From Octopus vulgaris (taxonomy: Eukaryota): DNA of 64,000 nucleotides. Below the pieces are notes generated by a model. It did not search any database, had not been told where the DNA came from, and worked only from the letters and a program-made list of their open reading frames with translations. Shown piece after piece: positions 36,139 to 46,389 of the stretch; the first letter of the stretch is position 1; each line of letters opens with the position of its first letter. The stretch spans positions 94,240,001 through 94,304,000 of the forward strand of contig OX597820.1 of assembly GCA_951406725.2 (NCBI GenBank). Direction: 5' to 3'. The position numbers were made by a program, and so were the translations under genes.

Positions 36139-36390
36139 TGAGGGTGCATGGCTTAGTGGTTAAGGTATTGCATTCACGACTGTGAGATCGTGGGTTCGAT
36201 TCCCAGACCGGGCGTTGCGTTGTGTTCTTGAGCAAAGCACTTCATTTCACGTTGCTCTACGATCATTTCGACATCTGACATGTGGCTCCCGTTTCACCTG
36301 TACAGGTAATGTCGATCTGATGGAGGGAGTGAACTTATGAGTACACAAACATTTGCTCACTATAAACAAATCATCTGTGTAGTTGTTCGT
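36139..36390 (+). mobile_element. SINE with B2-type head and a third tail type (E)
   Basis: GCATGGCTTAGTGGTTAAGG..GGTTCGATTCC head and TTGAGCAAAGCACTTCATTTCACG core, then an unrelated tail. Confidence 0.75.
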
Positions 36391-36606
36391 TATTAGATTA
36401 TTGGTGGGTTTCTTACTTTAAAATTAATACTTAAAAATTAAAATTAATATTTAACATTATAATCGATGTTTTGATATAATCATTATCGTTAAGTTTTAAG
36501 TTTCTAGTTTGATAATAGATTTTTTTTATAAGTAAAATTCTTATATTATTTATTTCTTAAAAATATTGTTTAAACATTTCTGATTATTTATTAAAATATT
36601 ACAATT

Positions 36607-36700
36607 AACCTGAAGATTGACTGTAACCATAATTCGAATTATTAATTGAATTTAAATTATTGTTATTCGAATTGGTTACAACCATGAAACGATCGTAGTG
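36607..36700 (+). ncRNA. Hammerhead motif with elongated stem II in an AT-rich element (about 36390-36985)
   Basis: CTGAAGA (36610), TGTAACCA..ATTCGAAT / ATTCGAAT..TGGTTACA hairpin, GAAAC gatc GTA; stem I weak. Confidence 0.6.
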
Positions 36701-38329
36701 TTTTACTCTTTATCTTTTATTAAACTTTTAATACTTTTTGATATTTATATAATTTGAAAAAAAAAATAAATAAATAAATAAAAATAATATAAAAATAAAA
36801 ATATATACATATATATATATATATTTATATATATATATATTTAAAATGTATAAGTTTAAATTATTTAAATAATTTTTAAATTTTAACTTTTATATATTTT
36901 TTAATTAATTTTATTTCTATGTATTGGCTTATGATTTTCACTGTTTGATTTGCCTAATAGTGGTTTTATCTCTAATTTAATATGATATATATATATATAT
37001 ATATATATATATATATATATATATATATATATATATATATTTATATATATATAAACAGAAATTTTACTGCTTATGAGTTAATAGTTTTACTTTAGGTTTG
37101 AAGACTTCTACAGTCTCTAGAAATTCTTCGTTCAGTGATTCGGTACGCGTGGAGACATCTATGGACATCAATGATTAACTGATTAGGTCATAAGACTGAA
37201 ATGTTTGAAGGTGTTACCAGTAACTTGATAAAATAATTAAAATATTAGTAATTGACTAATATTTTATTCTTCACTCCGTAATTATTTCTAGTAAGCGGAA
37301 GAAAATATCATGGTTTAACGGAGAGGGATGTGACTGCAGCAACACATTGTGGAGAACAGAGAACAAGATGAGTCCAGCAAGCTACTTTTGTAATTTGCTG
37401 CATCCGTCTCCATCCCCAATAGTCTTGACCTGGTCTTGCCACTGGATTAAAGATGGACACTGACAACAGAGTGGGATTGACGATGCGCAATTCTTCTTCA
37501 CTTTAAAAGTCACCACACAACTCATTAGTCATACTTCACTCTGGTTGACCAGATGATGCTTGTCGACCCGACAGACATACTTGTAGTCTGCAAATTTGTT
37601 GAAGTTTTTTTTTTTGTTTGGCTGTGCATTACATGCATGTAATTGTAAAATCGTTATATGGTCTACATCTCTTGGTGATCTACTTGATGCCGAACACAGT
37701 TGTATGTTCTTTCATGGTCTAAGCGTAAGTGGAGAGTTTGTTGCCTTCCCCTTTATATTTCTGAAAGAAGTGTAATTTTAAAAAACCAACAATTCGCTGA
37801 AAAAATTTTTTATGACTATTATACTAACGATAATCGACACACATATCTACACATTCAAGACTTAAGGAAATTGAGGTATTTAAATCCAAGCTTTTATGGG
37901 TTTAAGTGAAAAGTAAATAGCTTAGCGCTGATATTAAACACATTAAGAAATTAAAAGAAAACACTTCAACTTGTCTAATAAAAGCAGTAGAAGACTCTCT
38001 AAACTTACATCGAATAATGAAATCCTCAACAATGCAGATCCCTACAGCAATAATACACGAATATCTTACACATTCAAAGACAATATACCGCAGACTCCGG
38101 GCAAGATGCTGCAACATGGAATACTTCATTTTTCGCTTTCTCCTTAAATGGCTGAAAGTTTCATATATATATATATATATATGCATACATATATATACAT
38201 ATACATATACACACACACACACACACATACATACATATATATATATATATATATATATATATATATATATATATATATATCGCCGTTAAATACTTTAAAA
38301 ACATTCAATACAAATAGAAATAGGGTAAT

Positions 38330-38735
38330 AATTTTTGCTTCCCAGCCTCATGAATTCCGTTTCAATCCCACTGCGTAGCACTTGTATTTTGCAATAGACC
38401 CAGAATGACCAAAGTTTCGTGAGTGGATTTGATAAATAGAAACTGAGAGAAGCCTGGTACATATATAAAAAACATATATATCAAGAGAGTGGGGAGAGAT
38501 AAAAATATAGATATATGTTTGTGTATCGTTGTGTTTCTCCCCCGCCACCACTTTACAATTGGTGTTGGTTTGTTTACGCACCCGTATAAACAAACAAAAG
38601 AGACTAATAGAATAAGTACCAGGCTTTAAAACAATACAGTGGTCGATTCGTTCAACTAAAACCCTTCAAGGAGAAGCCCTAGCATGGCTGCAGTCCAATG
38701 ACTGAAACAAGTAAAAAAAAAAACAAAAGATAAAG
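38330..38735 (+). mobile_element. Diverged family A SINE
   Basis: GTGAGTGGATTTG, AGAATAAGTACCAGG and GCATGGCTGCAGTCCAATGACTGAAACAAGTAAAA motifs. Confidence 0.75.
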
Positions 38736-43467: not shown

Positions 43468-43590
43468 GGAGACACGTGGCTTAGTGGTTAGGATGTTGGA
43501 CTTATGATCGTAAGATTGTGGTTTCGATTCCTGGACCGGGCGATGCGTTGTGTTTATGAGCAATACACCTCATTTCGCGATGCTCCAGTT
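43468..43590 (+). mobile_element. SINE family B2 head, truncated
   Basis: CGTGGCTTAGTGGTTAGG..GGTTTCGATTCCTGGACCGGGCG. Confidence 0.75.
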
Positions 43591-44872
43591 CGGTTGGATC
43601 GTTGCAATGCACAGCTTTACCTGCTAGGTCAGTAAAGTAAGCGGCCATCAATCAGAAATGTTTAGCATAGCACGCTCCGTCCGTCAGGACTGCCTACTCT
43701 CGCTTCATCTGTACGTGCTGACTCTCGAGTCATTGCCACGGAAGGTGGAACGGTTGAGGGATATCCTATTTGAATTGGAATCCAGGAGTGTGGTGTCGGC
43801 GTACTCGGATGATGTCACCGTCATGGTGTCGGATACGTCCGAAATGGGGACGGTCGGATCAATTCTATACGAATACGTGTCAGCGGTAGGGGCTAAGATC
43901 AACGCCTACAAGTCGGTGGGCTTGCGACTGAGCACCTGGAGAGGCAGGTCGATGCCGTCGAACGGCGACGTTGGACTCTGGACTGACAGACCAGTTAAAC
44001 TACTTGGGGACTGTTTCGTTCTCGTCTCCAAGTGGATATGAACTGTGATAAGGGAACGAACGGGGTAGCCAATGTTATCCAGAAATAGACAGAGAGAAAG
44101 ATGTTCCTGAGAGGTCGAGCTGAGATAGTTTCGGTCGTGCATTGTGCTGGCTACCTCTTGTTTAGGTTGGAGCACTTGTTATTTATTTTCTTTTGGAAAG
44201 GACGCTTTATAATGGTCAGGTGGTCAATCTACTGCCAACTGGTTGTCTGGTGGGCGAGGCGAAAGTGGTTGTCTGGTGGGCGAGGCGAAAGTGGTTGTCT
44301 GGTGGGCGAGGCGAAAGTGGTTGTATGGTGGGCGAGGCGAAAGTGGTTGTCTGGTGGGCGAGGCGAAAGTGGTTGTCTGGTGGGCGAGGCGAAAGTAGTT
44401 GTCTGGTGAAAGTCTGAGGATGGAGACTCTCCTCCTACGTAGATCTCTCATTGACTTTTTCAAGCTTTACTTGAAAGTGAAAGTGAAGATAGAGAAAGAG
44501 TTGTGGTCATTGAGCAAATTTATTGAAAGGTGGGTGAAAGATGTAAAAATGGCAAGAGTGGATGGCATCGTTCCAATTGAAGATTTGTGAATTGGAGGAA
44601 TGAAACTGGAGAGGGCACTCACCTTTAGTGTTCAGAGTGATCTGGGATGGTGGGTTTCCTCTATTGTCCGTAGAGGTCCTTCTGCATCAGGAGAACCATA
44701 TCACTGTCACCCTTTTCTTTTTACTGTTGTGTACTATGTATACTTCTCTTCTTTGTTTATTATATACCATGCATGCTTTCCTATTATTTCATTATATATA
44801 ATATTCACGCTTTGTCTGTCTTTGTATTGTTCCCCCGCTCTGGGGGTAAATAAAAGAAATCATTATCATTAA
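43590..44872 (+). mobile_element. L1/Tx1-clade LINE, 5'-truncated, decayed ORF2 RT with 3' UTR
   Basis: RSVRQDCLLS (cf. RQGCPLS), SAYSDDVTV (cf. YADD), GAKINAYKS, VKLLG and C-terminal FIERW; ends AATAAAAGAAATCATTATCATT. Confidence 0.85.
44240..44407. repeat. 26-bp GC-rich minisatellite, about 6.5 copies (TGGTTGTCTGGTGGGCGAGGCGAAAG)
   Basis: Near-perfect head-to-tail copies with about 2 substitutions. Confidence 0.95.
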
Positions 44873-45619
44873 CAACAACAAACGCAAGCTCAACAGCAAC
44901 AACAATAATAATAATATTACGTACATGTTCCTAGATACCGCCGTACGCTTTTTTGCACACCCAAACATGTTTGTGAGAGATATATGCATATGTACTTGTG
45001 TGCATACACGCATATATATTTTCATACATACAGACATAGAGAAACACATGTATCTGTGCTTTCATACATACTTACTCGCATATATGAATACATGAAAACG
45101 TACAGACGTTTCAGTACACATCCTTACATGCGTGCATACATACACAGGTACAAACATTCGCTACATGTATGTACATGTCTCTTTATACCTATTTGCCCTT
45201 ATGTGCAATCAGACATGTAGATACACGTTTGAGGTATATGTGGGTGGGTATATGCATGTATATGAGTATATGTGGATGTATGTTCGGATGCGCAAATGCG
45301 CCTGAAGACATGTATGTATGAATGTATATTGCATTTTACGCTTCACTGAGTAATTATCGTTTGTTTCCCTCCAATCATGTGCATACATACATCTATATAT
45401 GTATACGCACATGTGTGTATGTATGTGTATGCGTTTGTGCATTACATATATATATATATATATATATATATATATATATATATATATATATATATATATA
45501 TATATATATATATATATATATATATAAAATATTATTAGAGACAAAACCACTATTTTGCAAAACAAACAAGGAAAGACTTAATCAATACATAAAATTTTAA
45601 TAAATAGTCAAAAAAACCG

Positions 45620-45662
45620 CCACTACAATTGTTTCTTGTCTTGATCGACAATCTTCAGGTGG
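45620..45662 (-). ncRNA. Minimal type-I hammerhead ribozyme motif in a short element (about 45525-45690)
   Basis: revcomp: ccac-CTGAAGA-ttgtc gatcaa gacaa-GAAAC aatt GTA-gtgg; stems I and II fully paired. Confidence 0.82.
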
Positions 45663-46389
45663 ACTTCCAATCTAAAATATCAATATGTCTGTATATATAT
45701 ATATATATATATATATATATATGTCTGTATATATATATATATATATATATATCTGTGTATATTGATAGATAGATAGATAGATAGATAGATTGATTGATTG
45801 ATTGATTGATACATGTATGAATATATACATATATATTTATGAATCTGAGTATATACGTATGTATATATGTATGTATGTATATATATATATATAGAGAGAG
45901 AGAGAGAGGGAGAGGGAGAGAGATAGATAATTACATACATACATACATACATACATACATACATACATACATACATACATACATACTTACATACATATTA
46001 AGGACAAAAGAAGAAAACTATATCGTGAATAGAAGGAAGAAAGTATTTACATTCTCATTAAATTATGTAACCGGTTTCAACTTTTTAATAAGGTCATGCA
46101 AATAAGAAACGGAAATATATTGAACCATATTAAATTAATCTTTCATAATAGCAGATTTGAAAGTTCATATGTTTTCTTTGAAAAGTCCACAAGACAATGG
46201 TTGTTAGTTTCCTCACGATGGATCGTTTGGTCATAGTAGCAGTGGTAACAGTTTTTGCAGCGTCAGTTATTTATTTATTGTTCCTTTGAGTAGCAACATG
46301 CATAGTTTTGTTTATTATTCCTTACTAACAATGTTGACATGAAGGACTGGTAAGTAATGGTGGCAGAATGTAAGTCGTGTGGTAGCGAT

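Follow-up and report, generated by a model that had tools for sequence, protein, structure and literature searches.

The 64,000-nucleotide (nt) stretch of Octopus vulgaris DNA analyzed here (contig OX597820.1, positions 94,240,001 to 94,304,000 of the forward strand; referred to as the window) has a GC content of 30–43%, is rich in microsatellites and dispersed repeats, and by its look reads as animal non-coding DNA. Two elements in the window, E1 at 36390..36985 on the plus strand and E2 at 45527..45690 on the minus strand, each contain a type I hammerhead ribozyme motif with a palindromic helix III. E2 belongs to a short, very abundant family, and E1 is a diverged relative of E2. Selection on the pairing in helix III is moderately supported by the variation described below.

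E1 is an AT-rich element with a 5′ limit set from composition alone. Its hammerhead motif (36608..36699) contains the core CTGAAGA at 36610–36616, a stem II region of 69 nt between the core boxes at 36617–36685 with a U.U pair at the base and a long hairpin above, GAA at 36686–36688, the palindromic helix III octamer ACGATCGT at 36689–36696, and A17 at 36697. The 3′ end common to E1 and E2 occupies 36904..36985 and is followed by (AT)n at 36980–37053. E2 lies between a TA-rich run at 45446–45526 and another from ~45692. The motif of E2 (45620..45662, minus strand) consists of a stem I of 4 base pairs (bp; CCAC/GTGG), the core CTGAAGA at 45658–45652, a stem II of 5 bp with a 6-nt loop followed by GAA, the palindromic octamer ACAATTGT at 45632–45625 with position 3 at 45630, and A17 at 45624. 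The initial annotation of this DNA had reported the difference in stem II and the retention of the helix III palindrome despite two changes, and both are borne out here; its terminus pattern, octamers, and ACCGGT sites were likewise located correctly.

The terminus pattern ATTAGAGA.AAAACCACTATT..GCAAA appears at two places only in the window, at 45534–45561 on the plus strand and at 36976–36949 on the minus strand, and CTGAAGATTG is present only at 36610 (+) and 45658 (−). The 3′ ends of E1 and E2 align at 77% over 87 nt with a score that was reached by 0 of 2000 dinucleotide shuffles. When the tails after the cleavage site were compared alone, the score was reached by 0 of 1000 dinucleotide shuffles. 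The ends of both elements adjoin (TA)n runs, and no third copy of the shared 3′ end was found in the window with a profile of the two ends. The distance from the cleavage site (A17) to the end of the element is 282 nt in E1 versus 97 nt in E2. The earlier assignment of E1 and E2 to the same family thus holds for the 3′ end and the core, but E1 is a diverged and longer relative. Neither element is assigned to a named Penelope clade. E1 and E2 lie on different strands, and pairing between their octamers is poor (−1.9 kcal/mol); they are not each other's partners. A segment of 25 nt just upstream of the E1 core (36577–36601) resembles the tail of E2 at 22 of 25 positions and is possibly the trace of a partial tandem, a weak resemblance with a score reached by 23 of 2000 shuffles.

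A strict hammerhead descriptor was used in which stems I and II are each at least 4 bp. E2 passes: stem I (4 bp) and stem II (5 bp) close the core, and the ends of the element open in stem I. E2 is a credible intact member of the type I hammerheads. E1 fails the descriptor. Stem I of E1 has 2 bp (the successive pairs are C-G, A-U, A.G, U.U, and U.U), and two of the five pairs at the base of stem II are formed (U.U, U-A, G-C, A.C, and C.A); the initial annotation mentions neither weakness. Since stems I and II do not close the core, E1 was classed as a degenerate relative rather than an intact ribozyme; the copy has probably decayed or retains little activity.

The variation of the E2 family was obtained from sequencing contigs. 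At least half of the 13 words sampled from E2 occur in 20 of the 24 listed runs (six organism codes, 12 studies). The contigs from four runs were compared with E2 at 80% likeness and a 1% share; two listed rows that may represent the source of this DNA itself were excluded. The E2-matching contigs in these runs number 10,749, 237, 5, and 29, where depth is no copy number. The E2 family is plainly very abundant and little diverged. Helix III is spanned in three of the four runs, the exception being X16. The contigs drop rare variants and do not make the linkage between letters visible.

The comparison lists 17 letter changes, two of which are in the helix III octamer. The change 45630 T>C makes position 3 a G and gives ACGATTGT, a G.U form of the helix. 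The G3 form accounts for 49.0% of the depth in X1 (78 contigs), 53.5% in X14 (3 contigs), and 0.8% in X17 (1 contig), and position 3 is G in about half of the E2 depth in organism A. Among the 17 listed changes, A3G is the only one at positions 3–6. A change of position 6 to C, which would be needed for ACGATCGT of E1 or for the mismatched ACAATCGT (A3-C6), does not appear above the 1% cut in any of the three runs that span helix III. The G3 contig of X17 seems diverged (record 23, same depth, 13 other letters) and could carry C6 below 1%. The remaining listed changes affect loop II, the tail, position 11.1, and A17, where the change to U remains permissible; among the loose ends, one contig of X17 differs in the core and in stem II.

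Three states of one helix III pair are observed: A-U, G.U, and G-C. The paired states are seen and the unpaired state is not listed, which fits selection on RNA pairing. The initial annotation had proposed a compensatory double change that preserves self-complementarity, as expected for ribozymes that cleave as dimers. That inference as a whole is partly supported. The double change itself is known from two copies only, C6 is missing from the changes above the 1% cut in the runs that span helix III, and each of the two differences is a transition of CpG type. Selection for self-complementarity is moderately supported by a different observation, the abundant G.U form.

Several observations weigh against selection on this pairing. 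There is one polymorphic site, and the tolerated change would be hit by chance in one of 12 cases, or in one of four if transitions alone are counted. The change 45632 T>C breaks A15.1 and reaches 6.1% in X14 (2 contigs). The tail at 45527–45594 has only two listed changes, an invariance equal to that of the ribozyme, so the invariance shows youth and not selection. The octamers of E1 and E2 differ by two CpG-type transitions, and the catalytic C15.2-G16.2 pair is by itself enough to forbid the mirror changes, so a neutral path exists. Along this path only the outer pairs of helix III would matter; among the inner four letters, drift through transitions of CpG type would have turned G3 into A and C6 into T in the source lineages, and the palindrome would persist with no selection for dimers. 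The two possible one-step intermediates are equally likely where there is a single lineage, and the CpG dinucleotide in the window has an observed/expected ratio of 0.78 versus 0.92 for GpC. Against this path, no change is listed (1% cut) at the mirror CpG (45631) or at the two other CpGs of E2, so CpG decay in the copies is below 1% and the neutral path is weakened. Furthermore, the wobble intermediate is abundant and the mismatched one is absent from the listed changes, and a dependence on dimers has been published for hammerheads of this kind (PMC4209133, PMC7229834). Drift by CpG transitions is regarded as distinctly unlikely.

The predicted folding is consistent with selection on helix III pairing. 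When two 57-nt E2 motifs were co-folded without constraint, the minimum is a double hammerhead of −24.0 kcal/mol in which the two molecules share a helix III of 8 bp and exchange stem I partners. The monomeric hammerhead of E2 is predicted at −5.9 kcal/mol versus −8.7 kcal/mol for the monomer minimum. Among the 12 single changes at the inner positions 3–6, A3G alone preserves the helix III between the two molecules (P 0.93), compared with 0.16 or less for each of the other 11. The predicted association energies for A3/A3, G3/G3, and mixed pairs are −5.6, −5.0, and −5.7 kcal/mol, respectively. The A3-C6 form loses the double-hammerhead fold, and the G3-C6 form is the strongest at −6.4 kcal/mol. 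For two isolated E2 motifs, the double hammerhead is the best predicted fold whether both partners are A3, both are G3, or one is of each form.

Other predictions do not favor spontaneous dimers. The association is weak, with a dissociation constant (Kd) of about 1e-4 M, and for two whole 164-nt E2 copies the double hammerhead is not predicted (P 1.6e-6). Dimers would therefore depend on a tandem transcript, on co-transcriptional folding, or on a protein. Taken singly, the motifs gain nothing in folding over shuffled sequence (z 0.10 for E2), and neither does the whole E2 element (z 0.48). These energies bear on the proposal that dispersed copies dimerize in trans, or far apart in one host pre-mRNA, such that host cleavage depends on copy density. 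The very many near-identical copies of E2 would provide partners, and A3 and G3 are predicted to cross-pair as well as they self-pair. The weak association that is lost in the whole element, the opposite strands and poorly pairing octamers of E1 and E2, and the low in vitro activity of such dimers (PMC4209133) make this proposal highly improbable. A long shot of the same type is that E2 represents a young, mass-amplified 165-nt retroelement with a ribozyme that is silent alone and active only on contact between two copies, where the two major subfamilies would have retained cross-compatible helices III (A-U and G.U) and their thousands of scattered copies would act as a copy-density-gated cutter of host transcripts.

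Four additional elements with hammerhead-like motifs are found in the window. E3 (51965..52032, +) has a stem I of 5 bp, the core CTGATGA, a stem II of 5 bp, and A17; its helix III, ACCTAGGT at 52019–52026, is palindromic, and (TA)n is 156 nt downstream. E4 (22605..22963) is a fold-back between TA runs with 163 of 177 aligned columns identical. In the arm with its core at 22691–22685 (−), the core reads TTGACAA with U3-A8, stem I is 7 bp, and stem II is 6 bp above a U.U pair; in the other arm, with its core at 22877–22883 (+), the core is also TTGACAA with U3-A8 and stem II is broken. Helix III of E4 is ACCGGT at 22904–22909, with a second copy at 22664 (−), and H17 is C17 in each arm. Both hammerhead-like motifs of this near-perfect fold-back point outward to the TA runs. 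E5 (27690..27810, −) has the core ATGATTA at 27802–27796 with A3-U8, the stem II GC-GAAA-GC, a stem I of 3 bp after a mismatch, and helix III ACCGGT at 27779–27784 with C17. E6 (53492..53660, −), which is absent from the initial annotation, is flanked by TA and was found by a looser scan; it has CTGAAGA at 53563 and a stem I of 6 bp with two G.U pairs, and its helix III, ACCGAGGGT, is non-palindromic.

The motifs near 22904 and 27780 both lack CUGANGA: the cores read TTGACAA and ATGATTA, respectively. The motif near 27780 is on the minus strand, and that at 22904 is one arm of a fold-back. The interpretation of the 22904 motif as lacking a core and of the 27780 motif as having two random mismatches was dropped after a generalized scan with positions 3 and 8 free. 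The core N3UGANN8A9 with paired 3-8, GAAA, and U16.1-H17 is found in E1–E6, and H17 is A or C in these elements (for the NUH rule, see PMC3884650). The 3-8 pair is C-G in E1, E2, E3, and E6; the two arms of E4 carry U-A instead, and E5 has A-U. C3-G8 forms a tertiary pair, and U3-A8 is a natural covariation (PMC3088659, PMC4209133). The A3-U8 form is known from one copy (E5), and one third of random double changes would pair; a literature search for an A3-U8 core found no paper. A short self-complementary helix III is present in E1–E5 and not in E6. The U.U at 10.1-11.1 recurs in E1 (36617/36685), in E4 (22684/22668, −), and as a minor variant of E2 (45636) that accounts for 3.2%, 4.7%, and 14.9% of the depth in three runs.

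The tails of these elements were compared in 15 pairs, and one pair (E1-E2) is clearly alike; the E4-E5 resemblance is weak (28 of 1000). Since the tails are otherwise unlike, the other motifs belong to separate families and are uninformative on the covariation between E1 and E2. The palindromic sequences that had been cited as further examples are indeed present, but they provide no evidence on this family. All seven motifs are 21–156 nt upstream of a (TA)4+ run, where 18% of random positions fall within 160 nt, the first run of E1 is internal, and the two arms of E4 are not independent.

The number of motifs was compared with chance using two descriptors, both composed after the motifs were already seen. 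The strict scan matches only E2 and E3 (51970, +) in the window; these two cores compare with a mean of 0.02 per shuffled window, and 0 of 300 shuffles reach two. The scan with positions 3 and 8 free gives four Watson-Crick 3-8 cores and one without. The four are E2, E3, 22691 (−), and 27802 (−), all with a palindromic helix III, versus a shuffle mean of 0.035, and 0 of 200 shuffles reach four. The match without a paired 3-8 would serve the 22904 site as an alternative core formed over a long range. That all four Watson-Crick cores are palindromic, compared with 15% of the chance matches under the looser descriptor, is a further point against CpG drift, in favor of which stands the non-palindromic helix III of E6. 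Pattern scans of metagenomes gave three matches, none of which is a family member or palindromic. The terminus pattern has no match in genome and viral contigs, and the motif has none in viral contigs. An origin of the motifs as chance matches in AT-rich repeat DNA would agree with the absence of an Rfam match, the z of 0.10 for the E2 fold, and the failure of E1 in the strict descriptor. It is largely refuted, and scarcely credible, given the shuffle counts, the three chance metagenome matches without a palindrome, and the placement of the motifs against TA runs.

Hammerheads of this design have been described previously. Cervera and De la Pena 2014 (PMC4209133) described minimal type I hammerheads with a short helix III in the pseudo-long terminal repeats (pseudo-LTRs) of metazoan Penelope-like elements, where helix III and its loop are palindromic. 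In that work compensatory changes appear within families, the copies are mostly solitary, monomers do not cleave, dimers cleave at a low level, and an unpaired base before stem II together with G10.1-C11.1 are common traits. A review (PMC6765202) restates the Penelope-like hammerhead picture with the dimer reading and lists the work of Lunse et al., whose title contains "cleave RNA as dimers". In the legend to Figure S8 of Perreault et al. 2011 (PMC3088659), the stem III/loop III of repeat-type hammerheads is palindromic, with nearly all variants allowing dimer pairing; this is the same palindrome-variation argument as that of the initial annotation, made for other hosts, to which the single family examined here adds a measured G.U subfamily. 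Solo and inverted pseudo-LTRs (PMC3846280) and (TA)n targets with inverted insertions of Penelope-like elements (PMC8557442) have also been reported.

E1 and E2 resemble the Penelope-like hammerheads (PMC4209133) in the type I form with a short stem I, the small palindromic helix III, the predicted dimer, the mostly solitary copies, and, among their neighbors, the U3-A8 variant and the many families per genome. Inverted-repeat insertions and (TA)n targets are both found, in the E4 fold-back, in two contigs of X14, and in the TA runs. A Penelope origin is likely from the motif type, the TA targets, and the inverted-repeat neighbor. The reading that we favor, and consider fairly probable, treats E1 and E2 as related short elements interspersed at (TA)n, likely non-autonomous Penelope-like ends, with a ribozyme that would cut only when paired copies are present in one source transcript. 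A tandem source element would be transcribed, and two motifs in the transcript would pair via helix III and swap their stem I partners. Each paired motif would then cut after H17, and the cut RNA would be copied by a reverse transcriptase acting in trans before insertion at (TA)n. The solitary copies would be passengers that decay, as E1 appears to have done. We infer the cleavage, the tandem source element, and a selection that acts on the source elements and not on the dispersed ones.

A number of results argue in the opposite direction. Stem I of E1 is only 2 bp, and no tandem copy of the E1/E2 unit was found in the window. Rfam gives no hammerhead match at the gathering score in the window and no hammerhead among the 26 matches to E 10 around E2. 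Unlike the elements in PMC4209133, E2 has no unpaired base before stem II (U10.1-A11.1 pairs directly; E1 and E4 have U.U), and G10.1-C11.1 is absent from E1 and E2, with U-A rather than G-C in E2. The 69-nt stem II region of E1 and the A3-U8 core of E5 (one copy) are further differences from the Penelope-like hammerheads, as is the lack of a copy linked to an open reading frame (ORF) in the window. No Penelope ORF (reverse transcriptase plus GIY-YIG) was found in the window when 146 of the 267 candidate stop-free stretches were compared with Pfam. The clear matches among these stretches are a piece of a mariner-type transposase and a piece of a reverse transcriptase only. The latter lies between E1 and E2, and its relatives carry zf-RVT in three of five matches. 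The zf-RVT domain is a trait of long interspersed nuclear elements (LINEs). The reverse transcriptase at 43628–44038 was ruled out as the parent of E2 by these zf-RVT-bearing relatives. A suspected remnant of GIY-YIG upstream of E3 has no support, as the stretch matched nothing.

The lack of tandem units also bears on the relation to non-LTR retrozymes (PMC7229834, bioRxiv 10.64898/2026.07.22.740005), whose tandem arrays, located elsewhere, would be transcribed and cut into units by double hammerheads, with circularization and reinsertion of the units and with E1 and E2 as solo monomers. Like E1 and E2, retrozymes are short, AT-rich, non-coding, and hammerhead-bearing, derive from Penelope-like ends, and occur as solo monomers. 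The unit of ~165 nt is near the 170–400 nt range (PMC7229834), dispersed monomers have been described (bioRxiv 10.64898/2026.07.22.740005), and the abundance of E2 is high, with the contigs of X14 guessed to be RNA. Retrozymes are defined by tandem units and circular RNA, but no tandem units are seen here: head-to-tail joints number 0 in the four runs, a weak test and a further point against a tandem source since the contigs are short and the longest listed E2 piece is 108 nt. The loose ends at 45617, 45642, 45666, and 45671 show at least two different 5′ heads (inverted heads appear in two single contigs of X14), and the helix sizes differ from the canonical 6 and 4 bp. A retrozyme origin is thus rather unlikely, and Penelope-like ends remain the preferred assignment.

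Other repeats in the window include the mariner-type transposase fragment at 1587–2324 (+; PF01359, E 1.2e-15) and the reverse transcriptase fragment of LINE type at 43628–44038 (+), beyond which 6.5 repeats of a 26-nt unit occupy 44240–44408. A 184-nt unit forms 2.9 tandem repeats at 59657–60189 and is related to a dispersed repeat resembling a short interspersed nuclear element. The scans reported no hammerhead core in a second fold-back at 47555–48160 (arms of 274 nt, 93%) or in an inverted pair at 8501–8891/61067–61457 (391 nt, 95%).

The available excerpts of PMC13282606 and PMC5786205 contain no mention of these elements, and the word "ribozyme" is absent from the main text of one O. vulgaris repeat paper. 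The literature search found no description from a cephalopod and none of the exact motifs; repeat libraries and supplements may hold the family. The design of dimer-type hammerheads is already known, and E1 and E2 are real and of that known kind, so the finding by itself alters little. The new details are modest: the G.U subfamily, the swaps of the 3-8 pair, and the recurring U.U at 10.1-11.1. Taken together, these elements provide a natural test set: the family is young and abundant, one of its helix III pairs occurs as A-U or G.U and is G-C in a relative, and the neighboring elements show the 3-8 core pair in three versions. It could be used to ask whether dimer pairing is selected in vivo, where the published inference comes from low-activity in vitro data.

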